Positions 26,893 through 42,858 of a stretch of 64,000 nucleotides of DNA are shown here, piece after piece. Below the pieces are notes generated by a model, which worked only from the letters and a program-made list of their open reading frames with translations, was not told the DNA's origin and searched no databases. The stretch is from an uncultured Actinomycetes bacterium (lineage in GTDB: Bacteria; Actinomycetota; Thermoleophilia; Solirubrobacterales; Solirubrobacteraceae): contig CAVVTD010000008.1 of NCBI GenBank assembly GCA_963751065.1, positions 4,764 to 68,763 of the forward strand, read 5' to 3'. The translations under genes and the position numbers were made by a program. Every line of letters begins with the position of its first letter. The stretch's first letter is position 1.

Positions 26893-28059
26893 GTGGCCTC
26901 CACGCTCCGAGCCGGGATCGCCGGCACCGGCTTCATCGGTGCCGTCCACGCCCGGTCCGCCCGCCGCGCCGGCGCCCGCGTGACCGCGGTCGCGGCCTCG
27001 TCGCTGGAGAGCGCGCAGCGGGCCGCGCGGGACCTCGGCGCCGAGCGCGCCTTCGCCTCCGCCGAGGCGCTCGTGCAGGACCCGGACATCGACGTCGTCC
27101 ACATCTGCACGCCGAACCATCTGCACCAGCCGCTCGCCGAGCTCGCGCTCGCCGCCGGCAAGCACGTCGTGTGCGAGAAGCCGCTGGCGCTCGACGCGGC
27201 CGGCGCGCGGCGCCTCGTCGATGCCGCGGCGCAGAGCGGCCTGCAGACCGCGGTCCCGTTCGTCTATCGCTACTACCCGACGGTGCGCGAGGCGCGCCGG
27301 CGCGTTCACGACGGCGAGACCGGCGAGCTGCGCCTGCTGCACGGCGCCTACCTGCAGGACTGGCTCCTGCGCCCCGACGACGACAACTGGCGCGTCGACG
27401 CCGCGCTGGGCGGACGCTCGCGGGCCTTCGCCGACATCGGGTCGCACTGGTGCGACCTGGCGCAGTTCATCTCCGGTCACCGCATCACCCGCCTGTCGGC
27501 GCGGCTGATGACCGCCGTGCCCGAGCGCCTGAGCGCCGACGGGCGCCGCGCGTTCGCCGCCGCCGACGCAAGCGGCAGCGGCGATCCCAAGGCGGTGACG
27601 ACCGAGGACGCCGCCGTCGTGCTCTTCGAGACCGACGCGGGCGCGCTCGGCACGGTCACCGTCAGCCAGATCTCCGCGGGCCGCAAGAACAAGCTCTGCA
27701 TCGAGCTCGACGGCGCGCAGGAGGCGCTGTCCTTCGACCAGGAGAACCCCGAGGAGCTGTGGTGCGGCCGGCGCGAGGCGGCGACGATCGTCCGCCGCGA
27801 TCCCGAGCACCTGTCGCCGGACGCCGCGCGCTTCGCATCGCTGCCGCCCGGCCATCCGCAGGGCTACGCGGACTGCTTCGACGCGTTCGTCGCCGACGTC
27901 TACGCCGCGATCGCGACCGACACGCCGTCCGACGGGCTGCCCGGCTTCGAGGATGGCCTGCGCGCCGCGCAGGTCACCGACGCAGTGCTCGCCTCGGCCG
28001 CGACCGAGACGTGGGTCGACGTCGCCGGCGCCGCCCGGTCGCAGGCGGTGGCCCGGTGA
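26893..28059 (+). CDS. Gfo/Idh/MocA family oxidoreductase
   Basis: Blocks seen: AGIAGTGFIGAVHA (Rossmann), VVHICTPNHLH, VVCEKPLA. Confidence 0.85.
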   Translation: MASTLRAGIAGTGFIGAVHARSARRAGARVTAVAASSLESAQRAARDLGAERAFASAEALVQDPDIDVVHICTPNHLHQPLAELALAAGKHVVCEKPLALDAAGARRLVDAAAQSGLQTAVPFVYRYYPTVREARRRVHDGETGELRLLHGAYLQDWLLRPDDDNWRVDAALGGRSRAFADIGSHWCDLAQFISGHRITRLSARLMTAVPERLSADGRRAFAAADASGSGDPKAVTTEDAAVVLFETDAGALGTVTVSQISAGRKNKLCIELDGAQEALSFDQENPEELWCGRREAATIVRRDPEHLSPDAARFASLPPGHPQGYADCFDAFVADVYAAIATDTPSDGLPGFEDGLRAAQVTDAVLASAATETWVDVAGAARSQAVAR

Positions 28060-28979
28060 AGCTCGGCTTCCTCACCTCCTGCATGCCCGAGCGCAGCCTC
28101 GAGGACATCGCCGCCTGGGCCGGCGCCAACGGCTACGAGGCGCTCGAGCTCGCGGCCTGGCCGCACCTCGGCGACCGCCCGTTCACGGCCAGCCACGTCA
28201 AGGCCGACGTCTTCGACGACGCCGAGGCCGAGCGCGTGCGCAGCGCGCTCGATGACCACGGCCTGGCGCTCTCGGCGCTCGCCTACTACGACAACAACCT
28301 CGACCCCGACCGCGCCGAGCGCGAGGCCAACCACGCGCACCTGCGCACGTGCATCGACGCGTCCGCCGCCCTCGGCGCCGTCCCGGTCGGCACGTTCATC
28401 GGCCGCGATCCCGGCCGCAGCGTGGCCGAGAACCTGCGCGAGGCCGAGCACGTCTTCCCGCCGCTCGTCGACTACGCCGGCGAGCGCGGCGTGAAGCTCA
28501 TGATCGAGAACTGCGTCATGGAGGGCTGGCATCCCGACGGCCATCCCGGCAACCTCGCCTACTCGCCCGAGCTGTGGGAGTGGATGTTCGACCTCGGGCT
28601 GTACCTCAACTACGACCCGTCGCACCTGCTGTGGCTCGGCATCGACCCGGTCGCGGCGCTCAAGCCGTATGTCGACCGCGTCGCGCACGCGCACGCCAAG
28701 GACGCCGAGGTCTTCGAGGCCGAGCGCAACCGCTACGGCTTCTTCGGCCGCATGTCGACGCGCGAATCAGATCCGTGGGACATGGGCTGGTGGCGCTACC
28801 GCATCCCCGGCCTCGGCGACGTCGACTTCCGCCGCTACGTCGACACGCTCTACGAGGGCGGCTTCGACGGCGTGCTGTCGGTCGAGCACGAGGACCCGGT
28901 GTGGGGCGGCACCCCGGAGCTCGTCGAGGCCGGGCTGACGATCGCCCGCAACCACCTACGCGGCCTGGTCGTCCGATGA
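28056..28979 (+). CDS. sugar phosphate isomerase/epimerase (xylose isomerase-like TIM barrel)
   Basis: GTGA overlap with the upstream stop. Blocks seen: GYEALELA, MIENC, DPSHLLW, HAKD, LSVEHED. Confidence 0.85.
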   Translation: MKLGFLTSCMPERSLEDIAAWAGANGYEALELAAWPHLGDRPFTASHVKADVFDDAEAERVRSALDDHGLALSALAYYDNNLDPDRAEREANHAHLRTCIDASAALGAVPVGTFIGRDPGRSVAENLREAEHVFPPLVDYAGERGVKLMIENCVMEGWHPDGHPGNLAYSPELWEWMFDLGLYLNYDPSHLLWLGIDPVAALKPYVDRVAHAHAKDAEVFEAERNRYGFFGRMSTRESDPWDMGWWRYRIPGLGDVDFRRYVDTLYEGGFDGVLSVEHEDPVWGGTPELVEAGLTIARNHLRGLVVR

Positions 28980-30496
28980 AGCCCGTCCTCGAGGTCCGCA
29001 ACCTCGTCAAGGAGTATCCGGGCGTCAAGGCCCTGCAGGGCGTCGACCTCGACGTGCTGGAGGCCGAGGTGCACTGCCTGCTCGGGCCCAACGGCGCGGG
29101 CAAGTCGACGCTCATCAAGTGTGTCTCGGGCGCCGTCGAGCCGACGAGCGGCGAGATCCTCTTCGACGGGGAGCCGCTGCCGGCCGGCGACCCGGCGGGC
29201 TCGCTGAAGCGCGGCGTCGCCACGATCTACCAGGAGCTCGACCTCGTCGAGGACCTCAGCGTCGCCGCGAGCATCTTCCTCGCGCACGAGCCGCGCCGCC
29301 GCGGCGGCCTGCTGCTCGACCTCGACAAGATGCACCGCGACTCGGCCGCGCTGCTCAAGCGGCTCGGCCACGAGTCGATCCCCCCGCGCGCGAAGGTCGG
29401 CGCGCTGCGGCCGGCCGCGCAGCAGATCGTCTCGATCGCGCGCGCCCTGTCGGGCAACGTGCGGCTGCTCATCATGGACGAGCCGTCGGCGATCCTCGAC
29501 GAGGGCGAGATCGAGACGCTGTTCGAGGTCGTGCGCCGGCTCACCGCCGAGGGCGTCGGCGTCGTCTACATCTCCCATCGCCTCGACGAGATCCGCCGCA
29601 TCGGCGATCGCGTGACCGTGCTCGCCGACGGCCGCACCACGGCGACCGGGCTGCCCGCGAGCACCCCGACCGACGAGCTCGTCGAGCTCATGGTCGGCCA
29701 CAAGGTCGAGCAGCTCTACCCCGACCGCCCGGTGGGAACGGACAAGCTGCTGCTCGAGATCCGCGGCGCGCGGCGCCTGCCGGCGGTGCGCGACGTGAGC
29801 CTGAAGGTCCACGCGGGCGAGGTCGTGGGGCTCGGCGGGCTCGTCGGCTCCGGGCGCACCGAGCTGCTGCGCCTCGTCTACGGGCTCGACCAGCCCGAGG
29901 CGGGCGAGTTCCTGCTCGACGGCAAGCCGTTGAAGGCCAACAGCCCGGGCGCCGCGATCCGCCGCGGCATGGGATTGGCGCCCGAGGATCGCAAGTCCCA
30001 GGCGCTCGTCCTGGACTGGAGCCAGACGAAGAACGTCACGCTCTCGGACCTCGACCGCTTCTCGCATCCGCTGCTGAACATCCGCATCGAGCGCGCGCAG
30101 GCCCGTGCCGAGCTGCGCAAGCTCGGCACCGTCCCCGACGATCCCGATCGCCCGGTTCGCCTGCTTTCGGGCGGCAACCAGCAGAAGGTCGTCCTCGCGC
30201 GCTGGCTGTTGCACGGCTGCCGGATCCTGCTGCTCGACGAGCCCACACGCGGTGTCGACGTCGCGACGAAGGCCGAGATCTACCGGATCATCAGCGACCT
30301 GGCCAAGGACGGCCTCGGCGTACTCGTCGTCTCGTCCGAACTCGAGGAGCTCGTCGGCATCTGCACGCGCATCCTCGTGATGCGCGAGGGCGAGATCGTC
30401 GCCGAGGTCGACGGCAGGACCGCCACGGAGCGCGAGCTCCTGCGCCACGCCGTGGCGCCGACAGACGCACCCGTTCTCGCCGAGGAGGTCACATGA
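28976..30496 (+). CDS. sugar ABC transporter ATP-binding protein (duplicated ABC domains)
   Basis: ATGA overlap with the upstream stop. Walker A GPNGAGKST, a second Walker A GLVGSGRTE, the signature LSGGNQQK, and LLLDEPTRGVD. Confidence 0.9.
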   Translation: MKPVLEVRNLVKEYPGVKALQGVDLDVLEAEVHCLLGPNGAGKSTLIKCVSGAVEPTSGEILFDGEPLPAGDPAGSLKRGVATIYQELDLVEDLSVAASIFLAHEPRRRGGLLLDLDKMHRDSAALLKRLGHESIPPRAKVGALRPAAQQIVSIARALSGNVRLLIMDEPSAILDEGEIETLFEVVRRLTAEGVGVVYISHRLDEIRRIGDRVTVLADGRTTATGLPASTPTDELVELMVGHKVEQLYPDRPVGTDKLLLEIRGARRLPAVRDVSLKVHAGEVVGLGGLVGSGRTELLRLVYGLDQPEAGEFLLDGKPLKANSPGAAIRRGMGLAPEDRKSQALVLDWSQTKNVTLSDLDRFSHPLLNIRIERAQARAELRKLGTVPDDPDRPVRLLSGGNQQKVVLARWLLHGCRILLLDEPTRGVDVATKAEIYRIISDLAKDGLGVLVVSSELEELVGICTRILVMREGEIVAEVDGRTATERELLRHAVAPTDAPVLAEEVT

Positions 30497-31515
30497 GCAC
30501 GCCCGATGCGCCCGCCGGACCGAGCGGAGCGGCCGCGCTCATGGGCCAGATGAAGACGCTCAAGCTGCAGGAGTACGCGCTCGGGCTCGTCGTCATCGCG
30601 CTGTTCGTCGCCGGCGCGATCCTCAAGCCGGACACGTTCCCGACCTGGGACAACATCCGCAACATGCTCACGCAGGCCAGCGTGATCGGCGTGCTCGCCA
30701 TCGGCATGACGTTCGTCATCGCCACCTCGGGGATCGACCTCTCGGTCGGCTCGATGGTGGCGGCGGCCGGCGTCTTCGGCGGCATCATGGTCGGCGATGG
30801 CGGGACGAGCAGCATCGTCTTCATCGTCGCGGCGATCGGCTTCGCCACCGCGCTGGGCTCGATCAACGCGATCGCGGTGGCGTACGGGCGGGTGGTGCCG
30901 TTCATCGCGACGCTCGCGATGTTCTCGATCGCCAGGGGCGTGGCGCTGCTGCTCAACGACAAGCTCCCCGTCAGCCTGCTCGACCTCAACGGCGGCTCGT
31001 TCGGCGACCCGGCCGCCTTCTCGCTGCTGTGGTTCGGCAACGGGCGGATCCTCGAGATCCCCGTGTCGGTCTACATCTTCCTCGCGGTCACCGTCGCCGG
31101 CTGGATCCTGCTCAACCGCACCCGCTACGGCCGCTACGTCGTGGCGGTGGGCGGCAACCGCGAGGCGGCGCGGATCGCCGGGGTGCCGGTCCGGAAGGTC
31201 ATCTTCAGCGTGTACGTCCTGGCCGGGCTGCTCGCCGGCATCGCGACGGTGCTGCTCTGCGCCCGCCTGGGCAGCGCCTCGCCGGTCAGCGGCAACCTCT
31301 ACGAGCTCGACGCCATCGGCGCGGTCGTCATCGGCGGGACGAGCCTGGCCGGCGGCCGGGCGACGATCGTCGGCACGTTCCTCGGCGTCCTGACGTTCGC
31401 GCTCATCTTCAGCCTCATGACGCAGCTCAACCTCTCGACCGAGGTCCAGCAGGTGACGAAGGGCCTGATCGTCCTCGGTGCCGTCCTGCTGCAGCGCCCG
31501 GAGGCCAGGTACTGA
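30493..31515 (+). CDS. sugar ABC transporter permease (RbsC/BPD type)
   Basis: ATGA overlap with the upstream stop. Polytopic membrane protein with TFVIATSGIDLSVGS and GGTSLAGGRATIVGT blocks. Confidence 0.9.
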   Translation: MSTPDAPAGPSGAAALMGQMKTLKLQEYALGLVVIALFVAGAILKPDTFPTWDNIRNMLTQASVIGVLAIGMTFVIATSGIDLSVGSMVAAAGVFGGIMVGDGGTSSIVFIVAAIGFATALGSINAIAVAYGRVVPFIATLAMFSIARGVALLLNDKLPVSLLDLNGGSFGDPAAFSLLWFGNGRILEIPVSVYIFLAVTVAGWILLNRTRYGRYVVAVGGNREAARIAGVPVRKVIFSVYVLAGLLAGIATVLLCARLGSASPVSGNLYELDAIGAVVIGGTSLAGGRATIVGTFLGVLTFALIFSLMTQLNLSTEVQQVTKGLIVLGAVLLQRPEARY

Positions 31516-31568
31516 TGGCCCGCGCCGCAGCCCCTTCCCGACGTCCAGTCCACAACAGGAGGAACGCA

Positions 31569-32612
31569 ATGTCGCTCAGGCGACCCCTCATCTCCATCGC
31601 CGCAGTCTCGCTGCTGGCGCTCGGTGCCGCCGCGTGCGGCGGCGAGACGAAGACGGTCACGGTCGGCGCATCGGAGCCGAGCGGCACCGCGGCGGCCGGC
31701 ACCGACGCGCCGGCGGGCAAGACGGTGAGCATCATCGCCAGCGTGCCGCCGACCGATCACGGATGGCTCGGCGCCATCTCCAAGAACGCCAAGGCCGCGG
31801 CGGACTCGCACGACGACGTGAAGTTCGAGCTGCTGCAGGCGGCCGACGCCGACTCGCAGGCCCAGCAGGTCGAGCAGGCGATCGCCAAGAAGCCCGACGT
31901 CCTCGTCGTGCTGCCCCAGGACGGCGCGGCGCTGACCCCGGTCGCCCAGAAGGCCGAGCGGGCCGGCATTCCCGTGGTGAACATCGATCGCCTGTTCTCC
32001 AAGCCCGACGCGGCGACCGCGACGGTGCTCGGCGACAACTACCAGATCGGCGTGCTGGCGGCCGGCTACATCTCCGAGCAGCTGAAGTGCAAGGGCAACG
32101 TCGTCGAGATCCAGGGCCTCGCCGGGATCTCGGTCACGACCGACCGCAGCAAGGGCTTCTCCGACGAGCTCAAGAAGCGCTGCCCGGGCGGCGGCGTGAA
32201 GATCGTCGCCAAGCAGCCGGGCGACTTCAACCCCGACACCGGCCTGAAAGTCATGGAGAACATCCTGCAGGCGCAGAAGAAGATCGACGCCGTCTACACG
32301 CACGACGACGACATGGCGCAGGGCGTCATCCAGGCGATCCGCAACGCCAATCGCGACGACGAGATGTTCCTCACCGGCGTGGGCGGCTCGCAGGACGCGA
32401 TGAAGCAGATCAAGGCCGGCGGCCTGTACCGCGCGACCTTCCTCTACAACCCGAACATGGCCGCGACCGCGGTGAACATGGCCCGGCTGATCGCCCTCGG
32501 CCAGGGCTTCGCCGAGCTCGTGCCGCCGGAGGTGCCGCGCCAGGTGGTCGTCCCGGCCGCCGTGGTCACGAAGGCGAACGTCGGGCAGTACGAGAAGTAC
32601 GCGTTCAACTAG
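31569..32612 (+). CDS. sugar ABC transporter substrate-binding lipoprotein (periplasmic binding protein type I)
   Basis: AGGAGG lies 6-7 nt upstream of the ATG. Lipobox LLALGAAAC. PBP blocks VVNIDR and DAVYTHDDDMAQG. Confidence 0.9.
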   Translation: MSLRRPLISIAAVSLLALGAAACGGETKTVTVGASEPSGTAAAGTDAPAGKTVSIIASVPPTDHGWLGAISKNAKAAADSHDDVKFELLQAADADSQAQQVEQAIAKKPDVLVVLPQDGAALTPVAQKAERAGIPVVNIDRLFSKPDAATATVLGDNYQIGVLAAGYISEQLKCKGNVVEIQGLAGISVTTDRSKGFSDELKKRCPGGGVKIVAKQPGDFNPDTGLKVMENILQAQKKIDAVYTHDDDMAQGVIQAIRNANRDDEMFLTGVGGSQDAMKQIKAGGLYRATFLYNPNMAATAVNMARLIALGQGFAELVPPEVPRQVVVPAAVVTKANVGQYEKYAFN

Positions 32613-32644
32613 GACTCGCCGGCCGACGCCCGCGCTGGGCTGGC

Positions 32645-32678
32645 CGCCCGCTGGATGCTCTACCGCATCCGGCGGGCG
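32645..32678. terminator. strong GC hairpin between convergent genes (candidate bidirectional terminator)
   Basis: CGCCCGCTGGATGC-TCTACC-GCATCCGGCGGGCG gives a 14-bp stem with one mismatch. It sits in the 81-nt gap between the stops at 32612 (+) and 32694 (-). There is no U-tract. Confidence 0.45.
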
Positions 32679-32693
32679 CGCGGGCGTGGCGGC

Positions 32694-35600
32694 TCACTCC
32701 ATCCCCATCGCGCAGTACTCCGCCATCGCCATCGCGGTCAGGTGCGGCCGCCGGATGACGCTCGTCGGGAAGACGCTCGCGTCGCAGGCGTAGAGGTTGC
32801 GGCAGCCGTGGACGCGAAGGTCGGGATCGACCACGCCGTCGTGCGGGTCGCGGCTCATCGGCGCGCCGCCCTGGGGCCGCGCGCTGATCGCCAGCCCCCG
32901 CGATGACGTCAGCGATGGCGCGAGCGCCTGCAGCTGCGCGACCGACGCGAACTCCTGGTACACCGGCGTGGCGGGCATGACGCGCCGCGCGCCCACGGCG
33001 AACAGGATCCGGCCGACGACCTCGAGGCGCTCGGTGAGCCGGGCGAGCTCCGGGCCGGTGAGGTGAAACTGCGTCGCCCGTCGCGACCAGTACGGCGAGC
33101 GCCCCGACCGGTCGGTGCCGAGATGTACCCGCATCGCGGCCATGTGGCGGTAGCGGCGCATGTTCTCCTCGTGGCGATCGAACGTGCCGGGCATCGCCAT
33201 CGACTGCAGCCAGACGGGAGACCAGGTGGACTCGACGACGAACTTCGGCTGGTCCGGGCAGAGGTCTGTCATGAGCTGCACGCCGACATGGGCATCGAGC
33301 TGCTCGTCGAAGTCCGCGGTCAGCGTCGAGGCGAGGTTGAACGAGAAGCTGCGCCCGCGGCTGATCGCGCTACGGCGCAGCAGATGGGCGCAGCCGAGCG
33401 CCCCCGCCGCGAGCACCACGGTCTTCGCGTGGATCGTCAGCTCGCGGCCGTCGCGCATGCGGCATGCGACGCCACGCGGCTCGCCGTCTTCCATGAGGAT
33501 TCGCTGGACCTCGCAGCCGGGCATGACCTCGAGGTGGTCGCCGAAGCGCCGCTGGCCCCACGGCAGGAGCGTGTCGAGCGCGGCGACGCTGCGGACTGAG
33601 AGGTCCGGCGGTGCCTCGTCGGGCCGGGTCAGCGTCCCGGTCGGCGTGTAGCCGAGCTGTTGGATGCCCTCCTGCAGCAGCACGGCGGCGCGGCTGAACG
33701 GGCCGGCGGGTCGGTCGATCCCGGGCAGCCAGGTGAGCACCTGCTGCCAGGATTCGTGGAACCGCTGCTCGTCGAGGCCGAACTCGTCGACCCACTGCTT
33801 GACCACCATCGGCGCGACCGACGACCACGTCGGGTAGCGCACCGGGCAGTCGCCGCCGAGCGTGGAAATGCGGTGCGCGCGCGCGTCGAGGTCGCCGAGC
33901 ACGTCCAGGCTGCCGTCGCCCAGCAGGTCGGGCAGCGTCTGCAGCGCGTCGCTCGTGTCGCGTGCCGGGTCGATCTCGGTCCCGCGTTCGAGGATGATCG
34001 TGCGCAATCCGCGCTCGGCGAGCCGGTAGGCGATGAGGGCTCCGGCGGCCCCGCTGCCGACCACCACGGCGTCGACCGTGTGACGGCCGTGGTCGTCCGG
34101 GCGCCGCTGCGTGATCGAGGGATGGGTCAGCATCGGCACGATGCCGCTGGGTGCAACGGCCGGCCCGGCGATCTGCTCGGCAACCTCGGGGTTGGCGAAG
34201 TAGCCCAGCGAGCAGAGCTGGTGCGCCGTGCGCTCGACGGATGGGCGTAGACGCCCCATCCCGCGCCAGCTGCCGTGCAGCAGCCGCCGGCGGTCCTCGA
34301 CGGCGATGAGCGAGAACGACGGGCGCGCGTGCAGGATCGGCAGCAGCGCCACGAGGTCGAGCGCAAGCCGGGCGCGCCGCAGCGACAGCTTGCTCGAGTC
34401 GTGCAGGTGGACGCCGTGCAGGTAGGCGTCCACGTTGTGCGCGACCCGTGCCGGCGGCACGAGCGAATCGGCGCCGTGGACCGTCTCGCTCAGCGCCTGC
34501 AGCGTACGGTGCTGGCCCGGCGTGAGCAGTTGCAGCCCGAAGCGCGTGCGGTAGGCCCGGCGCGAGAGTCGCCCGACCGCGACGACGATCGCGGCATCGA
34601 TCGCGAACCACAGCAACGCGAACGCGAGGATGTCCTCGGACGGCGAGGTGCCTGCTTCCCCCGACACGATGAGCGCGGCGACGGCGGCGGCCTCGACGAC
34701 CAGCACCCAGGTGAGCAGCTCGACGAGCGCGCCGAAGCGGCGCACGTCCGAGGCCGCGAGCGCGAACAGCGCGCCGAGCAGGATGCTGCGCGTGATGATC
34801 GCGACGGCCGTCGGTTCGAGCATGCCCTCGAGCGTCGGGATCAGCATGCCGCCGTCGATCGTCGTCGGGGCGATCAGCGGCACGAAGGCGAGTGCGAAGA
34901 CGACCGACAGCACCCGCAGCAGCCGGCTCAGCCGCTGCTCGTCCGGAACGGCCTCGAGCGCACGCGCGGCGTGCAGCGACTGCCAGGCGCGGCCGTCTTC
35001 GCCGGCCGACGGCGTGTGCTCCGATTCCGTTGAGGCCCCGTCGGGTGCGGCGGACGGCACCGGCGCCGGCTCGCCCGGCGACCCGGGCTGGGCCGGGTCC
35101 TGGGCAGTCAGCGTCGCCTCGATGTCCGTCAGCGCTCGCGCGACCGCGGCCGTGGGCAGGCTCGTCAGGTACGCGACCTGTGACGTGTCCGCGTCGGCGA
35201 GGACGTCGCGCTGGTCGCTGCCGGCGCCCGCCTCGCTGACGCGGTCGAGGTGGGCGAGCACCCGCTGCGTCGAAGGGTCCTGGAGCTGCTCGGCAACAGC
35301 GGACAGCGCCTCGTTGCTCGGGCTCGCGACGATGTTCCCGGCCGGGTGATAGGCGGTCCACAGGCCCTCGCGAAACTGCCCGCATGCGAGCGCTACGGCG
35401 GCCGATCCGTCGCGCAGGACGCCGTGTTGCTCGGTGTCGAGGCGCTGCACCCGCTCGAAGGCCGCGCGCAGCATCGGCGGCCACGACATCGCCTTCGCCT
35501 TGCGCGTGGCGATCCACGTGAGTGCTCGCACGTCCGGGTGCCCCGGCAGCACGGACTGCAGGCCGGCGACGAGGCCGTCGATCGGCTCGCCCTCACGAAG

Positions 35601-36416
35601 CAGCAGATGCGCCAGCAGGATCGCATTCATCGGCGCGCGCTCGATGTCGCCCGCCAGCGTGGCGAGGTCGGGCGTGCTCAGCGGCCGCGGCGGCGTGCGC
35701 AACCGCCACAGCAGGGCCTCGGTCGCCGATCCGGACGGCGCGTCGCTGTGCCATCCGTCGCGCATCCGAACGAGGTGCACGGACGCATCGGCGAACGCGG
35801 GGCCGCTCGGACCGTGGGAGACGAAGACGACGGTCTGCCAGCCGTCGCAGAGCCACAGCGGCTGCTCGAGCAGCGGCGAGAGATCCGCGGGGAGCTTTGC
35901 GCGCGGCCCGCGCAGCACGACGCCCCGCTTCGCGGCGACCGTGCCGACGATCCACTCGCCGCTCGGGTCGGCCGTCACGCTCAGCTCCAGCTCGGCGCCG
36001 TCGCGGATCACCGCCACGTCGTCGAACGTGGGCGCCCCGCCGTCGTCGCCGAGCTTGCGGATCATGAGCACCAGGCCGCTCTGCGCCCCGCTCGCGGTGA
36101 GCGTCGCGCTCGCGTGCTCGGCAGCCTCCGCGTGGCGGCGATCGGTGCTGCGCGCGCCACGCACGGGCGCGGCGCACGACATCGAGAGGTCGATAGCGTC
36201 GCGCACGTACTCGTCGCCGGCCTCGAGCGCGACGAGCTGTCGCTCGACGCTGTCGCCCGCCCGGTACTCGAGCTGGTACACGCCGGGGTCGAGCTCGGCG
36301 TCGAGCCCGCCAAGCCCCGAGACGACGGTCGACCGCGAGCGGTCGGCGACGCTGAGCTCCGTCCACGGCGAGTTGGCGCGAAGCGTGATGCGGGTGGTTG
36401 CCGCGGGAGAGAGCAC
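32694..36416 (-). CDS. 1240-aa multidomain membrane protein: unassigned N-domain(s), Pro-rich linker, ~4 TM helices, Gluconate_2-dh3-like segment, C-terminal GMC family FAD oxidoreductase
   Basis: GTG 36416 is preceded by AGGGA. Hydrophobic segments lie at about aa 499-615. The dinucleotide fold is VDAVVVGSGAAGALIAYRLAERG. The GMC C-terminal block is VVDPDLRVHGCRNLYACDASVFPT. Confidence 0.8.
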   Translation of the reverse strand: MLSPAATTRITLRANSPWTELSVADRSRSTVVSGLGGLDAELDPGVYQLEYRAGDSVERQLVALEAGDEYVRDAIDLSMSCAAPVRGARSTDRRHAEAAEHASATLTASGAQSGLVLMIRKLGDDGGAPTFDDVAVIRDGAELELSVTADPSGEWIVGTVAAKRGVVLRGPRAKLPADLSPLLEQPLWLCDGWQTVVFVSHGPSGPAFADASVHLVRMRDGWHSDAPSGSATEALLWRLRTPPRPLSTPDLATLAGDIERAPMNAILLAHLLLREGEPIDGLVAGLQSVLPGHPDVRALTWIATRKAKAMSWPPMLRAAFERVQRLDTEQHGVLRDGSAAVALACGQFREGLWTAYHPAGNIVASPSNEALSAVAEQLQDPSTQRVLAHLDRVSEAGAGSDQRDVLADADTSQVAYLTSLPTAAVARALTDIEATLTAQDPAQPGSPGEPAPVPSAAPDGASTESEHTPSAGEDGRAWQSLHAARALEAVPDEQRLSRLLRVLSVVFALAFVPLIAPTTIDGGMLIPTLEGMLEPTAVAIITRSILLGALFALAASDVRRFGALVELLTWVLVVEAAAVAALIVSGEAGTSPSEDILAFALLWFAIDAAIVVAVGRLSRRAYRTRFGLQLLTPGQHRTLQALSETVHGADSLVPPARVAHNVDAYLHGVHLHDSSKLSLRRARLALDLVALLPILHARPSFSLIAVEDRRRLLHGSWRGMGRLRPSVERTAHQLCSLGYFANPEVAEQIAGPAVAPSGIVPMLTHPSITQRRPDDHGRHTVDAVVVGSGAAGALIAYRLAERGLRTIILERGTEIDPARDTSDALQTLPDLLGDGSLDVLGDLDARAHRISTLGGDCPVRYPTWSSVAPMVVKQWVDEFGLDEQRFHESWQQVLTWLPGIDRPAGPFSRAAVLLQEGIQQLGYTPTGTLTRPDEAPPDLSVRSVAALDTLLPWGQRRFGDHLEVMPGCEVQRILMEDGEPRGVACRMRDGRELTIHAKTVVLAAGALGCAHLLRRSAISRGRSFSFNLASTLTADFDEQLDAHVGVQLMTDLCPDQPKFVVESTWSPVWLQSMAMPGTFDRHEENMRRYRHMAAMRVHLGTDRSGRSPYWSRRATQFHLTGPELARLTERLEVVGRILFAVGARRVMPATPVYQEFASVAQLQALAPSLTSSRGLAISARPQGGAPMSRDPHDGVVDPDLRVHGCRNLYACDASVFPTSVIRRPHLTAMAMAEYCAMGME

Positions 36417-36423
36417 AGCGTCC

Positions 36424-37488
36424 CTATCCGGCGACCTGGAGCGCGAGCTCGCAGTCGCGGGCGATCACGCGAAACGCCCCGCCGTTCGCGAACGCCTGGC
36501 CGCCGTTGACCGGCCCGATCGTGTAGTCGGCCTCCGGAAGGTCGAGCGTCAACGGCCCCTGCGCCGGGTCCCAGGTCCGGACGTCCTCGTGGTCGCGCTG
36601 GAGGTGCACCTGGCCCGCATATCCGTCCGGGAAGCGGATCGTCATCTTCCGGCTGAGTCGCGGCAGGCGCCCGAGCCCGGGTCGCACGACCATCGGATCG
36701 CGCAGGTTGACGGGGAAGTCCGGCGTCTGCTCGTAGGCCTGTCCGGCGGTCATCTCGTGGACGTGATCGCCGATGTAGGTGCTGAGCTTGTCGGTACGGA
36801 TCTCCCCGGTCTCGGGGTCGGCCGCGCCGCCGCGCAGGCCGTCGACGAGCGCCGCGGTGAAATAGCCGCGAAAGCGGTCCGGCTGCTCGTACGCCGCTTC
36901 GGCGTACGACGTCGCGAACGCCATGACGAGCTTCGCGTCGCCGTGGCGCCGGCGCGGCTGGCCGAGACGCAGCCCCAGAGACGGCGCGAGCGGGCGCTGG
37001 TCGCGGCAGCAGTCGGCCAGCAGCAGCACCTCCTTGAACAGCCCCGCCGACCGATACCAGGCGTGCACGGCGGAGAACTCGATCATGTCCCAGAAGTTCT
37101 CCTTCGGGTACGCGTTGGCGCACAGCAGTGCGCCGGCTCCGCCGCTCGGCGCCACACCGTGCCCGGAGGCGTAGACGTACAGCCGCGAGTGCTCCCAGAT
37201 CGACCGGTCGGCATTCATCGCGGCCGTGAAGGTCTCGTTGATCTGGCCGAGCCTGCTCTCGACGTCGACCGACGTCGGTCGCGCGTCCCAGTTCGTGCGA
37301 AACCCCTCCTCCTCCACGGGCTTGGCGTGGACGCTGTGGATGTTGCGCTCTGGGACACGCCCGCCCTGCTCGTCGACGAGCCACGCATGGAAGGCCTCGG
37401 CGTCCTTGCGCGGCCCGGCCAGATCGGACAGGCCGGGGTAGCGGTTGATACCGATGACGACCGCGTAGTGGTGCTCCGTGTCCATCAT
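36424..37488 (-). CDS. caspase-like peptidase (clan CD, C14 family-like) with beta-rich C-terminal module
   Basis: Blocks seen: YAVVIGINRYPGLSDLAGPRKDAEAF, YVYASGHG (His codon 37159-37161), LLLADCC (Cys codons about 37006-37011). The start ATG shares 1 nt with the upstream stop. Confidence 0.75.
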   Translation of the reverse strand: MMDTEHHYAVVIGINRYPGLSDLAGPRKDAEAFHAWLVDEQGGRVPERNIHSVHAKPVEEEGFRTNWDARPTSVDVESRLGQINETFTAAMNADRSIWEHSRLYVYASGHGVAPSGGAGALLCANAYPKENFWDMIEFSAVHAWYRSAGLFKEVLLLADCCRDQRPLAPSLGLRLGQPRRRHGDAKLVMAFATSYAEAAYEQPDRFRGYFTAALVDGLRGGAADPETGEIRTDKLSTYIGDHVHEMTAGQAYEQTPDFPVNLRDPMVVRPGLGRLPRLSRKMTIRFPDGYAGQVHLQRDHEDVRTWDPAQGPLTLDLPEADYTIGPVNGGQAFANGGAFRVIARDCELALQVAG

Positions 37489-38969
37489 CACTCCTCGGCG
37501 ATGAACACCTTCAGGCTGGCCTGCACCTGGGGATCCTCGTCGAACGCGCCGTGCTGCTCGGCGCCCGCGGAGAGGCCGGGGCCGCCGTCGATCGGCGACC
37601 ACACGATCTGGTCGCCCGCAGCGGCGAGGTAGGCGCGCACGGCGGTCAGCTCGGCGAGCTCGGACGCCGGGCCCTCGACCCAGCGCTGCAGGCCGACGAC
37701 CGGCTTGCCCGCCTCGCTGTCGCCCTCGGCGTCGCGCTCGAGCAGGCCCGAGACGAAGTACAGCAGCGAGTGCGGGTACACGAGCGGGACGAGCCGGTCG
37801 CGGCGCTCGGCGGCGTCGTTCATCGTGAACATCCGGAAGCGCTCCCAGAGGTGGTCCCAGCCGTCGACGACCGCGGCGAAATCCGTGAACGTGCAGGCGG
37901 GCGCGAGGAACACGATGCGGCGGAAGCGGAAGTCCGCGGGCAGTCCGCCGCCGGCGCCGCGCTCGCGCTCGACGGTCGCCATGAGGTTGTTGATGAACAC
38001 CGCACCGGTGCTGTGGCCGACCGCCGTGATGTCCGGCACCGGCCCGGCGTTGATCGCGTTCGTCAGCGCCGTAAGAAAGCGCGCGCCGCCGCGCGGCGGG
38101 CCGCCGTTGGCGACCGGCTGGAACGTGTCGAGCGTCTCGCGCTTCATCGCCGTCCAGATCGCGGTCACCGCGGGGCCGAGATAGAACTCGCGCAGGAGCT
38201 CCTCGACGACGGTGGCGTACAGGCCGTGGTCGCGGCCCTGGCGGTAGCGCCGCACGACCGCGCGGACCACTCGGGTCGCCTTGCGCGCCAGGACGGCCGC
38301 CTCGAAGATGCCCTTCGCTCCGTCGCCGCCGGTGTCGCCGCGCAGGTCGGCGACCGCGTCGGGGTCGAGCAGCGTCGGTTTTCGCGTGCCGTCGCCGGCA
38401 AATGCGCCCTTCGCGCCGCCGGCGTCCGCGCCGACCGCGGTGCTCACGGCGGCCAGCAGCGGCTCGTCGTTGGCGATGTCGAACTCGAACTCGTCGAGCT
38501 CCTCGATCGTGAGCTCGGGGAGCTCGCCGGCGGGCACGAGCTCGTCGAAGGGCACCTCGTGGCGCTCGAGGCGGTCGAGCTGGTCGTCGACCTCGCGCGG
38601 CGAGAGCGGCCCCGCGCCGGCGCTCTTCGCGCCGCTGGAGTCCGTCATGCGCCCGCCGAGATGGCCGGTGGTGGTCCGCAGCAGCCGGTTGAAGATCTCG
38701 TCCTTGGCGATCTCCGGGAGGTTGCGCAGGATCGACGGCACGTCGCTGCGCCAGATGAAGAAGATCGGGTAGGCGCCCGCCTCGGCGTAGACGGGCAGGA
38801 GGTTCTCGGCCACGCGGCGGCCGCTCTTTTCCGACACGAGGCCGCCGTGGAAGTGCACGACGCCCTTGCCACTGGCGACAAGCGCCCGGACCATCTCGTC
38901 AACCCGCTCGGGCGCGGTGACGAGCGCCCCGTCCTTGCCCGTGACGATGATGTGATCGTCCAGGTTCAT
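37488..38969 (-). CDS. alpha/beta hydrolase-like protein with a long acidic/helical insert
   Basis: VVHFHGG (oxyanion-hole type) and AVGHSTGA (GxSxG, Ser codon 38010-38012) are separated by about 270 aa. The C-terminus has EQHGAFD. Start taken at ATG 38969; GTG 39005 is possible. Confidence 0.65.
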   Translation of the reverse strand: MNLDDHIIVTGKDGALVTAPERVDEMVRALVASGKGVVHFHGGLVSEKSGRRVAENLLPVYAEAGAYPIFFIWRSDVPSILRNLPEIAKDEIFNRLLRTTTGHLGGRMTDSSGAKSAGAGPLSPREVDDQLDRLERHEVPFDELVPAGELPELTIEELDEFEFDIANDEPLLAAVSTAVGADAGGAKGAFAGDGTRKPTLLDPDAVADLRGDTGGDGAKGIFEAAVLARKATRVVRAVVRRYRQGRDHGLYATVVEELLREFYLGPAVTAIWTAMKRETLDTFQPVANGGPPRGGARFLTALTNAINAGPVPDITAVGHSTGAVFINNLMATVERERGAGGGLPADFRFRRIVFLAPACTFTDFAAVVDGWDHLWERFRMFTMNDAAERRDRLVPLVYPHSLLYFVSGLLERDAEGDSEAGKPVVGLQRWVEGPASELAELTAVRAYLAAAGDQIVWSPIDGGPGLSAGAEQHGAFDEDPQVQASLKVFIAEE

Positions 38970-39025: not shown

Positions 39026-40432
39026 CTAGCGCGTCGCGCCGGTGATGCGAAAGCCGTCGGCGCGCAGCGCGGGGCAGACGACGCCGTGCGCGAAGCGGCG
39101 GCCGTAGAACTCGCCCTCGCTGACGAGCTGGCGCTCCTCTGTGAGCGCCTGGGTCGCGCTGAGCAGCCGCAGGACGGAGTCGGTGAAGCGCACGTCCTTC
39201 AGCGGCCGGGCGACGGCGCCGTCCTCGATGAGGAACGTGCCCTCGCGCGTCATGCCGGTGAGCAGGGTCTCCTTGTCGCGCACCGTGTTGACGTACCACA
39301 GGCGCGTCACGTAGATGCCGCGCTCGATCGGGGCGACGAGCTCGTCGATGCCGGCGGCGTCGCCGCCGGCGAGCACGAGGTTCGTGGGGGAGGGGCCGTA
39401 GGGCGAGCCGCCGGGCTGCGTGGCGTGGCCGGTGGAGCGCGTCCCGTCGCCGGCGAGCGCCGCGGAGCGCAGGTCGTGCACGACGCCGGTGGCGACGCCG
39501 CCCTCGATGAGGCCGACGCGCTGCTTCGGCGTGCCCTCGAAGTCGAAGCGGTGCGGCAGCGTGTGGGCGTCGGCGGCGTCGTCGCGCAGGTCGATCGACG
39601 GGGCGGCGACGGTTGTGCCGAGGCGCCCGCTCAGCGCGCCGCGGCCCTCGGCGTGGGTGAGGCCGTTGTGGGCGAGCGCGCCGAGGAAGTCGAGCAGGAC
39701 GCCCACCGCGGCCGGCTCGAGGACGACCGGGTACTCGCCGGGCCCGAGCTCGGCGAGCGGCTCGCCGCCGACCTTGCGCGCGGCGCGGCGGGCCACCTCG
39801 CCGGGGTCGATCGCGCCGGCGGCGGTTGCCGTCGCCGAGGCGAAGCCGCTGCGCCCGTCGGGAGCGCGGCAGATGACCTTCATGAACGCATCGGTCACCT
39901 CCTCGTCGAGCCGCAGGCCGCTCGTCGCCGCGATCGCGGTGCGCACGGCGCCGGCGGTCCAGACACCGAACGCCTCGAGGCCATGCTCGGCGGCGACGCC
40001 GAACGCCCGGCCCAGGGCAGTGCCCGCGCCGGCCGGGTCGAGTCGGGCGGTCTCGGCGTCGAAGCCGTCGGCCCAGGTGTGCGGCGCGGCCCTGCCGTCG
40101 ATGTGGGCGAGGCCGGGGTGGTTGCCCTCGCCCGAGCGCGCCGACGCGCGGGCGGCGGCGTCGGCGCGGCGCGCCGTGTCGCGCAGCGCGCCGTCGTCGA
40201 GGCGGTTCGTCGAGGCGAGCGCACTGTGCCCGTCGCGCACGACGAGGATCTCGACCGCGGTGTCGTCGATCTCGGTCGCCTGGGTCGGCGCCGAGCGCGC
40301 GAAGCGCGACATGAGCGAGCGCTCGCGCATGACCGTGACCTGCAGCTCGGCGCCGGTGCCGGTGCCGGTGTCGGCCAGCGCGAGGACGCGCTCGGCGATC
40401 TCCGGCGGGGAGCGCAGCGCGGTGGTGCTCAC
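39026..40432 (-). CDS. pmbA: TldE/PmbA family metalloprotease partner
   Basis: The 468-aa sequence has typical PmbA C-terminal blocks (GYPVVLEP, FDxEG, GIYVTRLWY) and no HExxxH. It starts 4 nt after the tldD stop. Confidence 0.8.
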   Translation of the reverse strand: MSTTALRSPPEIAERVLALADTGTGTGAELQVTVMRERSLMSRFARSAPTQATEIDDTAVEILVVRDGHSALASTNRLDDGALRDTARRADAAARASARSGEGNHPGLAHIDGRAAPHTWADGFDAETARLDPAGAGTALGRAFGVAAEHGLEAFGVWTAGAVRTAIAATSGLRLDEEVTDAFMKVICRAPDGRSGFASATATAAGAIDPGEVARRAARKVGGEPLAELGPGEYPVVLEPAAVGVLLDFLGALAHNGLTHAEGRGALSGRLGTTVAAPSIDLRDDAADAHTLPHRFDFEGTPKQRVGLIEGGVATGVVHDLRSAALAGDGTRSTGHATQPGGSPYGPSPTNLVLAGGDAAGIDELVAPIERGIYVTRLWYVNTVRDKETLLTGMTREGTFLIEDGAVARPLKDVRFTDSVLRLLSATQALTEERQLVSEGEFYGRRFAHGVVCPALRADGFRITGATR

Positions 40433-40436
40433 GTGC

Positions 40437-41873
40437 TCATGCCACCCCGACCTCGACGTCGCGAAAGCGCGCGGGCGCGGTGCCGTGCGAGACGCGCATG
40501 ACCTGACCGGGCTCGCCCTTGCCGCAGTTGCCGACGCCCCACAGCCGCCACGCCGGCGCCGAGCAGACGGCGTCCAGCCCGCTCCAGAACGTCGGCGTCA
40601 CGCCGGCGTAGGAGGCGTTGCGCAGCAGGCGCCCCAGCTCGCCGCCGCGGATCTCGCGCGCGACCTCGGTCCCGAACTGGAAGTGCAGGCGGCGGTCGTC
40701 GATCGACCACGAGCGGTTGGTCTCCAGGTACAGGCCGCTGTCGGTGTCGGCGACGAGGTCGGCGAGCGAGCCGGCGTCGCCGGGCTCGATGGAGACGTTC
40801 GTCATGCGCACGATCGGCTGCCGCGCGAAGCCGTCCGCGCGCGCGCAGCCGCCGGATCGCTCGAGCCCGACCGCCGCCGCCGAGCCGCGATCGGAGAGCG
40901 CGGCGCGCAACACGCCGTGTTCGATGAGCGGCGTACGCGCGGCGGCGACGCCCTCGTCGTCCCAGCCGAACGTGCCCAGCCCGCCGGGCAGCGTCGCGTC
41001 GGCGGTGATGTTCAGCCGCTCGGAGCCGTAGCGCAGCGTGCCGAGGTCGCCAGGGCCGACCCAGCTCGTGCCCGCGTAGGAGGCCTCCATGAGCAGCATC
41101 CGATCGAGCTCGAGGGCGTGGCCAATCGACTCGTGGATCTGCAGCGCGAGCTGCTCGCCGCCGAGGATCACGGTCATCCGCCCGGCCGGGCACTCGGGCG
41201 CGCTGAGCAGCTCGACCGCCTCCGCGGCGATGCGCGGCGCATGGCCGGCGAGGTCGAAGGCGAGCACGTGCTCCCAGCCGGCGCAGGCCGCCGAGCCGCC
41301 ATGCGCGCCGGGGTAGGAGCGCACCTGCAGCTCGTCGCCGTCGACGGCGATCGCGGCAACCGACGCGCCGCACTCGACGCGCTCCTGGGTGCAGGCCGCG
41401 CCGTCGCTGGAGGCGAAGGCAGTGCGCACCCGGCGGCTCGCGCACGACGCGTCGGAGCGCACGACGCGCGGGTCCCCGCGCAGCGCCTCCTCGGCGTCGC
41501 AGAGCAGCTCGAGCTTGTCCTCGAGCGAGACGTCGAAGGGATCCTGTACGTGTTCGCCGCGCCAGTGGCCTGTGGCGGCCGGCACCGGCGCCAGGGGGCC
41601 CATCGGCGCGGCGGGCTGGCTCTCGGCGATGGCCAGCGCGCGGGCCAGCGCGCGCTCGGCGCCGGCGCGCGTGGTCTCGCGCGTCGCGGCGAAGCCCCAG
41701 CCGCCGCCGGCGCGCACGCGCACGCCGATCCCGTCGGCGGACGTGCTGTCGACGTGGTCGACGCGTCCGTTGCGAACGAGGATGTCCTCGGCGTCGGTGG
41801 CGACGTGGCGGGCCTCGGCGTACGTGCAGCGCGACGGCGCCGCGGCGAGGACCTCCGTCAGCAGGTCGAGCAT
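40437..41873 (-). CDS. tldD: TldD family metalloprotease
   Basis: Blocks seen: IHESIGHALE (HExxxH), GWDDEGV, GLYLETNRSWSIDD. Start at ATG 41873 (MLDLLTEVL). Confidence 0.85.
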   Translation of the reverse strand: MLDLLTEVLAAAPSRCTYAEARHVATDAEDILVRNGRVDHVDSTSADGIGVRVRAGGGWGFAATRETTRAGAERALARALAIAESQPAAPMGPLAPVPAATGHWRGEHVQDPFDVSLEDKLELLCDAEEALRGDPRVVRSDASCASRRVRTAFASSDGAACTQERVECGASVAAIAVDGDELQVRSYPGAHGGSAACAGWEHVLAFDLAGHAPRIAAEAVELLSAPECPAGRMTVILGGEQLALQIHESIGHALELDRMLLMEASYAGTSWVGPGDLGTLRYGSERLNITADATLPGGLGTFGWDDEGVAAARTPLIEHGVLRAALSDRGSAAAVGLERSGGCARADGFARQPIVRMTNVSIEPGDAGSLADLVADTDSGLYLETNRSWSIDDRRLHFQFGTEVAREIRGGELGRLLRNASYAGVTPTFWSGLDAVCSAPAWRLWGVGNCGKGEPGQVMRVSHGTAPARFRDVEVGVA

Positions 41874-41943
41874 CGCGGCAGTATCCCGCCGGGCGCGCGT
41901 CGTCGCACCACGACGTAGCATCGAGCTGGTGATGGTTCGTGAC

Positions 41944-42858
41944 ATGAGCCGCCGGCGGCTGGCGCGCACGGCATGCGTGCTGGCGGCGATCGCCGCCGGG
42001 CTCGCCGGCTGCGGGCAGGGTGACGACTCGCGCGCGGGCGGGGCGCCGTCGATCCGGCTCGTCGACCCGACGAAGCCGCCGCCGCTCGTCAACACGCTCG
42101 ACATCGACCCCGCGACGCAGGAATTCCTGCTCACGACCAACCGCGGCTTCTTCCGGATCTCGCGCTCGGGGAAGGTGCAGACGGTGCGCGGCACCGTGCA
42201 CACGGGCACGGCGTCAGGACCGCTCGGCGCGTTCCTCGAGCTCGCCGCGACGGGGCCCGGCCGGCTCGTCGGGTCGGGCCATCCCGCGACGACCGACACC
42301 CTGCCGGAGTTCCTCGGCGTGATGGAGTCCGACGACGGCGGGCGCACATGGCGAGTGATCTCCCGCCTCGGCCAGAGCGACGTGCACAAGTTCGTGATCA
42401 AGCACGACCGCCTCTACGCGATCGACTCGGCGACCGGCACGCTGCTCGTCTCGCGCGACGGTGGGCGCACGTTCGTCGGCGAGCAGTTCACCCCGAGCGG
42501 CGTGCTGATCGCCGACTTCGAGGTCGACCCGGCGAACCCGCGGCGCATCGTGGCGGCGAGCGACAGCGAGCTGTTCGTCTCGGCGAACGGCGGCGCGGCG
42601 TGGACGCGGCTGGACCGCGCGTCCGGTGTCCGCCTCGCGTGGCCGGCGCCTGACGCGCTGTACCGGGCGGTGAAGGACGGCAGCGTGCAGCGCTCGTCCG
42701 ACCGCGGCGCGTCCTGGCAGACGACGGGGCGCGTCGGCGGCGAGCCCTACCGCTTCAAGGCCGTGTCCCGCGACGAGCTCTATCTCGCGCTGAGCGACGG
42801 CACGATCGTCCACACGCGCGACGGGGGTCGCACGTGGGACGAGGCGTTCGTGCCGTAG
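41944..42858 (+). CDS. lipoprotein with BNR/Asp-box beta-propeller repeats
   Basis: Lipobox AAGLAGC. Five Asp-box-like repeats: SDDGGRTW, SRDGGRTF, SANGGAAW, SSDRGASW, TRDGGRTW. Confidence 0.75.
   Translation: MSRRRLARTACVLAAIAAGLAGCGQGDDSRAGGAPSIRLVDPTKPPPLVNTLDIDPATQEFLLTTNRGFFRISRSGKVQTVRGTVHTGTASGPLGAFLELAATGPGRLVGSGHPATTDTLPEFLGVMESDDGGRTWRVISRLGQSDVHKFVIKHDRLYAIDSATGTLLVSRDGGRTFVGEQFTPSGVLIADFEVDPANPRRIVAASDSELFVSANGGAAWTRLDRASGVRLAWPAPDALYRAVKDGSVQRSSDRGASWQTTGRVGGEPYRFKAVSRDELYLALSDGTIVHTRDGGRTWDEAFVP

Follow-up and report, generated by a model that had tools for sequence, protein, structure and literature searches.

In bacterial conflict systems, a caspase domain has been reported to occur always with a neighboring α/β-hydrolase gene, and such systems have been found to be enriched in multicellular bacteria (Kaur et al., eLife 2020, PMC7159879). 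A preprint by Evans et al. (bioRxiv 2025, PMC12642450) describes LcHydrolase of Lysobacter capsici, which is cut by LcCaspase at R73↓G and R117↓G (↓, scissile bond) and becomes toxic; its substrate is given as unknown, and it stands closest to lipases and oligopeptidases. For the α/β-hydrolase module, only cleavage and fragment toxicity are reported, while the MBL, Pepco, and EACC1 modules are reported with phage-protein-triggered toxicity or defense in plaque assays, and fusions to DnaK-like chaperones suggest stress inputs. In Canu, represented by KaeCanABC of Klebsiella aerogenes, a complex of CanA and CanB activates the zymogen CanC, and the system protected E. coli against phage (Tuck et al., Science 2025, PMC12799240). 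Here, we analyze a three-gene locus in a 64,000-nt stretch of the genome of an uncultured Actinomycetes bacterium of the family Solirubrobacteraceae (contig CAVVTD010000008.1; this whole stretch is hereafter the window), which encodes, on the minus strand, an α/β-hydrolase (gene 1), a C14 caspase-like protease (gene 2), and a 1,240-residue protein (gene 3) whose N-terminal partner module is followed by transmembrane (TM) helices and a flavoprotein domain of the GMC family. We consider it probable that the locus is a protease-effector cassette of regulated cell death or defense, made up of a latent hydrolase, its activating caspase, and a partner fused to the flavoprotein domain.

The three genes are conserved as a set. 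One genome per species was scanned, which yielded 80 loci with a homologue of gene 1, and these were examined by profile searches. A caspase adjoins the hydrolase in 72 of the 80, and caspase and partner are both present in 68; with five loci ending at a contig edge, the complete trio is found in 68 of 75 assessable loci, bearing out the co-localization on which a first-pass annotation of the window, made from the sequence alone, had let its three-gene module depend. Gene order is hydrolase-caspase-partner throughout, save in two Planctomycetes loci, and gene overlaps of 4 and of 14 to 17 nt recur in the trio loci. These loci span about ten phyla, including Actinomycetota, Chloroflexota, Planctomycetota, Verrucomicrobiota, several classes of Pseudomonadota, Myxococcota, Gemmatimonadota, and others, and the flanking genes are unrelated from genome to genome. 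Because the trio is conserved while its flanks differ, we regard it as a self-contained cassette.

Within the window, which has a G+C content of ~72% and raw lists of open reading frames (ORFs) full of spurious frames, the coding status of the three genes is supported by G+C content at third codon positions (GC3), which reaches 0.96 in gene 1 (37488..38969, 493 aa), 0.92 in gene 2 (36424..37488, 354 aa), and 0.93 in gene 3 (32694..36416); the ORF extension above 38969 is noncoding, with a GC3 of only 0.53. The three head-to-tail minus-strand genes of the first-pass annotation are thus confirmed, as are its readings of the junctions. The TGA of gene 1 (37490-37488) gives its A to the ATG of gene 2 (37488-37486) in an ATGA overlap, and the TAG of gene 2 (36426-36424) is followed by the 7 nt GGACGCT and then by the GTG of gene 3 at 36416, with the preceding AGGGA straddling the gene 2 stop. 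Directly 3' of gene 3, between its stop (32694) and a convergent plus-strand gene ending at 32612, lies a strong GC-rich hairpin (32618..32693 on the minus strand), as had been noted for the end of the unit: the 81-nt stretch after the stop folds with a minimum free energy of -58.6 kcal/mol (z = -5.17), and none of 200 shuffles folded equally well. The hairpin is without a U-tract and was not called by a terminator scan that depends on one; it is likely the terminator of the three-gene unit. A terminator-like short GC hairpin with a T-rich tail also occurs within gene 1 (38079-38095, minus strand), and is probably due to chance, with four such sites found in the region against 1.6 expected.

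Gene 2 contains the motif blocks YAVVIGINRYP, ASGHG, and ADCC, by which a C14 peptidase had originally been recognized, and Pfam Peptidase_C14 (PF00656) matches its residues 7-258 (E 2e-9; 37.9 bits against a cut-off of 21.4). A phmmer search of gene 2 against PDB sequences gave no match, and a family profile was needed: built from 19 orthologues, it aligns SGHG (H110, at 37161-37159 on the minus strand) with AGHG of the human paracaspase MALT1 and DCCR (C161, at 37008-37006) with DMCR of MALT1, so that ASGHG and ADCC do fall on the C14 dyad, whose His canonically follows strand 3 in xGHG and whose Cys follows strand 4 in DxCR/QACxG, a placement on which the first-pass annotation had staked its reading of the gene. 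Both residues are invariant in 19/19 sequences. Also invariant are D29, D159, and E201, which align with acidic residues of MALT1 that form its Arg-binding S1 pocket, and because of this match gene 2 is expected to cleave after a basic residue. We compared CanA and CanB, with sequences taken from the supplement of PMC12799240, with the profiles built here. The caspase family aligns with KaeCanA at an hhalign probability of 97.7% (E 2.4e-12) over 308 columns, C-terminal domain included, so that the homology of gene 2 to CanA extends over the whole protein, and the caspase profile scores 47.6 bits against CanA with hmmsearch. C161 also aligns with the Cys of VDICRQ in CanA, which was mutated there as C187A (PMC12799240). 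The last ~85 residues of the caspase (~residues 270-354; 36427..36681, minus strand) form a β-sandwich that is kept in the family alignment and corresponds, when aligned, to the Ig-like region at the C terminus of CanA. On the strength of these alignments, gene 2 is assigned to clan CD, family C14, as a caspase of the MALT1/CanA type with the dyad His110 and Cys161.

The best named match of gene 2 is the NCBIfam model caspase_w_EACC1 (2.6e-16), at 59.8 bits far under its 140-bit cut-off. The two-gene EACC1-caspase system (PMC7159879; PMC12642450) resembles the present one in pairing a caspase that bears variable C-terminal domains with a membrane connection, and differs in that no EACC1 protein is encoded here and the effector is a hydrolase rather than a pore-former.

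Gene 1 has the two motifs first noted in it, HFHGG and GHSTGA, separated by an acidic insert with 24 D/E and 7 K/R among 96 residues. Its triad is placed at S320, D385, and H473 and its oxyanion motif at H41-G-G; all of 119 family members have HGG, S320, and H473, and 118 of them have D385. The homologues form a large family of ~500-aa proteins. Gene 1 itself matches no Pfam, NCBIfam, or PADLOC model, but DUF900 (PF05990) is matched by 12/21 members of its family (best E 3.5e-6), with weaker Pfam matches to Lipase_3 and LIDHydrolase. An AlphaFold2 (AF2) model (predicted local distance difference test [pLDDT] 83) shows an α/β core of alternating strands and helices and a long acidic helical insert (~residues 110-225; 38295..38642, minus strand), and a Foldseek search of the model against the PDB gave only weak matches to lipases and monoglyceride lipases (best E ~0.08). 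By these comparisons, gene 1 is an α/β-hydrolase, probably of the DUF900/lipase-like kind, and we predict that it is a zymogen effector. The first-pass annotation had proposed a protease-gated module directed at membranes or lipids; the protease-gated class stands, and a membrane or lipid target is plausible, because the hydrolase family is lipase-like.

The zymogen prediction draws on three candidate cleavage sites in the insert, G-A-K115↓S (38627-38625, minus strand), G-A-K187↓G (38411-38409), and G-A-K219↓G (38315-38313). At sites 1, 2, and 3, K/R is found in 110/119, 93/119, and 109/119 family members, respectively, followed by G, A, or S. The only segments of the AF2 model with pLDDT below 50 (residues 112-117, 183-197, and 214-220) coincide with these three sites. 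Six hydrolase loci with room for a caspase but none present served as controls. Site 3 has K/R in 72/72 hydrolases with an adjacent caspase versus 0/6 without, and site 1 in 69/72 caspase-linked hydrolases (the other three being truncated) versus 1/6. Four of the six caspase-less loci were scanned for other proteases, which at least two of them have. At L067 (7818-11630), the gene 1-type hydrolase is fused to a Peptidase_S8 subtilase and a trypsin-like gene lies upstream; at L072 (5547-10794), the hydrolase is flanked by S49 and trypsin-like peptidases; both hydrolases are without the K/R-G sites of the caspase-linked members. The other two (L024 and L063) had no protease-like neighbor. The covariation of basic residues with the caspase, an indication drawn from sequence comparison, is what one would expect to see if these loops are where the caspase cuts the hydrolase.

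In this respect the pair resembles LcHydrolase and LcCaspase, with a hydrolase gene beside a caspase-like gene, a lipase-like hydrolase, basic-Gly sites between the N-terminal strand region and the nucleophile (compare R73↓G and R117↓G), and a caspase that is likewise of a type predicted to cut after a basic residue. LcHydrolase differs in being ~300 aa long with a 44-residue excised piece and two sites, whereas gene 1 has 493 aa, a ~115-residue insert, and three sites. Caspases described for hydrolase modules are, moreover, either fused to sensors (WD40, STAND, VMAP) or alone, whereas the caspase here has only a β-sandwich tail and is followed by a separate, conserved partner gene.

Residues 1-440 of gene 3 (35097..36416, minus strand) are modeled by AF2 with a pLDDT of 93.3 and a predicted template modeling score of 0.91, as two β-sandwiches (residues 8-75 and 113-217), each with a PGxY motif, followed by a helical domain (227-440). 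Foldseek comparison of this model with the PDB and BFVD found no whole-chain match (query template modeling score ≤0.18), only generic Ig-like or CarboxypepD_reg-like sandwiches, and no PADLOC model matches gene 3; structure comparison, which had been suggested for every domain of the locus, thus places the hydrolase weakly among lipases and leaves the partner without a whole-fold match. Word-indexed homologue searches with the module returned merely two to three proteins; an exhaustive search of representatives returned a family of 2423 cluster representatives, mostly of 450 to 520 aa. Most genomes encode the partner by itself, as a third gene of that length, and most family members have no C-terminal domain, so that the giant GMC flavoprotein that the first-pass annotation took as the defining third component does not define it: the conserved part is the first ~440 residues only. 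Residues 25-89 of CanB match the partner profile in the first β-sandwich (12.6 bits; pairwise E 2e-6), which shares a PG(L/V)Y motif with the N-terminal module of gene 3. In one member (P0231/L086) the caspase is fused N-terminally to the partner; in that locus (285-2939) the C-terminal sandwich of the caspase and the first sandwich of the partner cross-match, and both carry PGxY. From these sequence matches, the tail sandwich of the caspase and the first sandwich of the partner appear to be homologous. We predict that residues 1-440 of gene 3 are a regulator or sensor of the caspase.

What the locus has in common with Canu is a MALT1-like caspase that ends in an Ig-like domain, a partner gene immediately after it, and, as predicted here, a zymogen gated by insertions, which in Canu are disordered and contain conserved Gly. 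It differs in its effector, which in Canu is an MBL-fold pro-nuclease encoded downstream and here is an α/β-hydrolase encoded upstream, and in its partner, since CanB has 347 aa against the 440 aa of the module here and no GMC or TM fusion has been described for it. The α/β-hydrolase is the sole adjacent effector candidate of the cassette, no match to an MBL-fold family was found among the genes scanned over ~26.9-46.1 kb of the window, and membership in Canu proper was rejected on the effector, a hydrolase and not an MBL nuclease. The first-pass annotation's view that the system is undescribed has therefore to be given up in that form: the hydrolase-caspase pair is described in PMC7159879, activation of a hydrolase zymogen by two caspase cuts in PMC12642450, and the layout mirrors that of Canu (PMC12799240).

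What the partner carries at its C terminus varies. We scanned with Pfam 19 of the longest among the top 150 partner representatives, together with five long partner ORFs from the genome loci; the 20th of these longest representatives, P0125, is gene 3 of the window itself. One trio is hydrolase-caspase-partner::trypsin::NucA (Endonuclease_NS), situated amid transposases (P0235/L087), and the partner is fused to TIR in a Dactylosporangium genome (L030, 10463-13798, in an ORF of at least 1112 aa that runs off the locus) and to pYEATS in a Gemmatimonadales genome (L050, 10391-12481). Other fusions comprise one TM helix followed by Ig-like (ASH) domains, and a 3-keto-disaccharide-hydrolase (DUF1080) domain. 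Of the 20 longest representatives, three carry GMC domains: P0125 from the window, P0172, and P0259. A search of the 80 genome loci (tblastn, E ≤1e-5) found TM and GMC homology in one, the nearest relative L001. The GMC fusion is therefore real and recurrent but rare and lineage-specific, and in P0172/L084 it forms part of a hydrolase-caspase-partner::GMC trio. A further locus (L085, 628-5746) encodes a caspase and a partner::GMC fusion and no hydrolase, with an ISL3 transposase fragment upstream; a Cys-rich 166-aa ORF and a 151-aa ORF with two C-terminal TM helices precede its caspase and could represent an alternative small membrane effector.

In gene 3 itself, a Kyte-Doolittle scan places four hydrophobic helices within residues 502-614 (34575..34913, minus strand). 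Because basic residues flank both ends of the four helices, we infer an N-in/C-in topology with a cytoplasmic GMC domain. The helices are kept in L001 and P0172 and missing from P0259. They are followed by a Gluconate_2-dh3-like segment (~residues 630-770; 34107..34529), which is conserved among the window, L001, P0172, and P0259; the family model (PF13618) reaches E 8e-4 in P0172 at 20.2 bits, below its gathering score of 23.4, and gives no match to the window segment even at E 10. The FAD-binding domain (~residues 780-1240; 32697..34079) is matched over residues 782-1232 by GMC_oxred_N (PF00732, 8.7e-9), GMC_oxred_C (PF05199, 2e-17), and FAD_binding_2 (4.9e-15), and its GxGxxG motif is intact (VVVGSGAAGALIAYRLAERG). 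Every score of gene 3 against the NCBIfam GMC equivalogs is far below cut-off. In PDB alignments with alcohol oxidase 8rpg and formate oxidase 3q9t, Arg1180 (32879-32877, minus strand) is paired with the HP(x)GT His of these enzymes; the second active-site position is taken by Arg1223. The catalytic His position holds Arg in the window and L001, His in P0172 (45% identical), and Asp/Ala in P0259, in which GxGxxG is degenerate. The complete GMC oxidoreductase behind about four TM helices of the first-pass annotation is thus borne out as to helices and domains and not as to completeness, its catalytic His being Arg1180; of the Pfam families that annotation had named, Peptidase_C14 and GMC_oxred_N/C match, Gluconate_2-dh3 does not match the window segment, and gene 1 is matched by none. 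GMC oxidoreductases that have a Gluconate_2-dh3 small subunit (membrane-associated sugar or polyol dehydrogenases; choline, alcohol, or formate oxidases) resemble gene 3 in GxGxxG, in both GMC domains, N and C, and in the dh3-like segment ahead of them, and differ from it in that its domain lies behind a conflict-system partner and four TM helices and has Arg for the catalytic His.

How this domain serves the cassette is the least certain part of our reading. Because the canonical catalytic His is not conserved, we take the domain as a ligand-, redox-, or FAD-binding accessory concerned with input or localization, and not as a standard alcohol oxidase; a conventional oxidase is argued against both by the His and by the degenerate FAD motif of one homologue. 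On the other hand, the same C-terminal slot elsewhere holds effector or signaling domains, which suggests an output role, and the domain might be a second true effector, close to what the first-pass annotation had in mind: a membrane-anchored oxidoreductase, released or switched on with the caspase, that would act with the hydrolase on the membrane and do damage via H2O2 or by oxidizing a membrane lipid, a quinone, or a cell-envelope sugar. The TIR and trypsin-NucA domains in the same slot of relatives, the intact GxGxxG with detectable GMC N and C domains, the recurrence of the fusion with a full trio in the 45%-identical P0172/L084, and the four TM helices that put the domain at the membrane all speak for such an effector. 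Variation at the His site and the degenerate motif of P0259 would be unexpected under selection for GMC catalysis, however, a search of the linker that leads to the TM region gave no conserved K/R-G caspase site, and most members of the partner family do without any C-terminal domain, so that we think a second effector of this kind unlikely. A broader possibility, put forward tentatively and with some doubt, is that a membrane-anchored, FAD-binding GMC domain with Arg in place of His has been recruited into a caspase immune or cell-death system, where it would be either a redox effector of a new kind or the trigger of the caspase, sensing the redox state of the membrane or a metabolite. This would include a role, to be held just as tentatively, for the partner as a general adaptor that couples CanA-type caspases to swappable C-terminal modules (TIR, trypsin-NucA, pYEATS, Ig-like, and GMC).

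The genomic surroundings bear on a quite different proposal, namely that the genes form a catabolic or housekeeping operon in which an esterase or lipase and a GMC dehydrogenase degrade a compound resembling a lipid, sterol, or sugar, with the C14 protein as a maturation protease. A sugar-uptake and sugar-conversion operon on the plus strand (26893-32612) converges on the trio and encodes a GFO/IDH/MocA oxidoreductase, a xylose-isomerase-like TIM barrel protein, an ABC transporter ATPase, a permease, and a periplasmic sugar-binding protein. Such neighbors, together with a lipase-like hydrolase and the common pairing of GMC with Gluconate_2-dh3 in sugar and polyol dehydrogenases, would fit a catabolic role, which the first-pass annotation had kept as its alternative. 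The sugar operon is convergent, though, with the strong hairpin between, and the flanks differ in other genomes; of the 80 loci, 68 have the trio, whereas TM and GMC homology was found by tblastn in the nearest relative only, so that the set is conserved without the GMC domain and in unrelated genomic contexts; the other fusions of the partner (TIR, NucA, pYEATS) are conflict-system domains; and the GMC catalytic His is missing. We accordingly regard a catabolic operon as very improbable.

Upstream of the trio, across a 56-nt gap, lies a pair of TldD/PmbA-type metalloprotease genes (39026-41900, minus strand), which we rejected as members of the unit on account of this gap and of their recurrence upstream in the close relative L001 only. 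Divergent from TldD is a gene for a BNR/Asp-box (Ycf48/sortilin-like) protein with a lipoprotein-type signal (41932-42855, plus strand), and the long extension of its ORF on the upstream side reaches into the region of the TldD start.

We propose that, in the protease-effector cassette, the acidic helical insert of ~115 residues between the oxyanion strand and the nucleophile elbow would keep the gene 1 hydrolase inactive until the gene 2 caspase cuts it at the G-x-K/R↓G loops (K115, K187, and K219). Cutting would free or rearrange the lid and so switch the hydrolase on, and the active enzyme would most likely attack an ester or lipid substrate, with the result that the cell is killed or arrested. 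Residues 1-440 of gene 3, CanB-like in position, would restrain the caspase and relay the trigger, and the TM helices would tether the complex to the inner face of the membrane. Several points weigh against this proposal. Site 1 of the window reads K↓S and not K↓G; the six caspase-less controls represent about four lineages, which makes the covariation an indication with no formal statistic behind it; and gene 1 is likened to LcHydrolase by description and layout, not by sequence. The hhalign probability of CanB against the partner is 19%, and homology is established for the first β-sandwich only. The intact FAD motifs of the GMC domain would equally fit an active enzyme with noncanonical chemistry, and the window flanks hold metabolic genes and no defense island. 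Finally, the analysis shows gene structure, family membership, the placing of dyad and triad, conservation of the trio, covariation of the sites with the caspase, and the range of fusions; that cleavage and toxicity do occur, and what the trigger, the substrate of the hydrolase, and the function of the GMC domain may be, we infer.

In multicellular or filamentous bacteria, the same protease-effector module could, instead of defending against phage, bring about cell death during development or under stress, or act in conflict between kin, and its GMC/TM part would then sense membrane redox or envelope stress. The location of the window locus, which is not in a defense island, would agree with this, as would the many hosts among Streptomyces and other actinomycetes, the enrichment of such systems in multicellular bacteria (PMC7159879), and the stress inputs suggested by DnaK-like chaperone fusions (PMC12642450). 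Yet the related Canu gave phage protection in E. coli (PMC12799240), the MBL, Pepco, and EACC1 modules are reported in PMC12642450 with toxicity triggered by phage proteins or with plaque-assay defense, one variant of the cassette lies within a transposase-rich region, and the cassette is also found in many unicellular phyla. A role wholly apart from phage defense therefore seems to us rather unlikely.

Our literature search found no prior account of the exact trio or of the GMC fusion, with Fig. 4A of Evans et al., which possibly shows the partner gene, lying outside that search, and the literature on caspase modules that we consulted made no mention of GMC or FAD domains in such systems. What is new is a conserved cassette in which this long predicted hydrolase zymogen goes together with a CanA-like caspase and a large uncharacterized partner family; the prediction of individual scissile sites, which have a control within the hydrolase family itself; and, in this lineage, the joining of the partner to a flavoprotein-like membrane module. 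Effectors gated by proteases are coming to be seen as a major principle of bacterial immunity, one that parallels animal caspase signaling, and the locus predicts exact scissile sites for a large family of hydrolase zymogens, sites that are absent where the caspase is absent. It may also link the CanB-type partner to a widespread, uncharacterized family of ~2,400 clusters with swappable immune domains, a family that looks like a regulatory hub of these caspases. Should the GMC domain prove functional, it would tie redox chemistry or redox sensing to bacterial programmed cell death.

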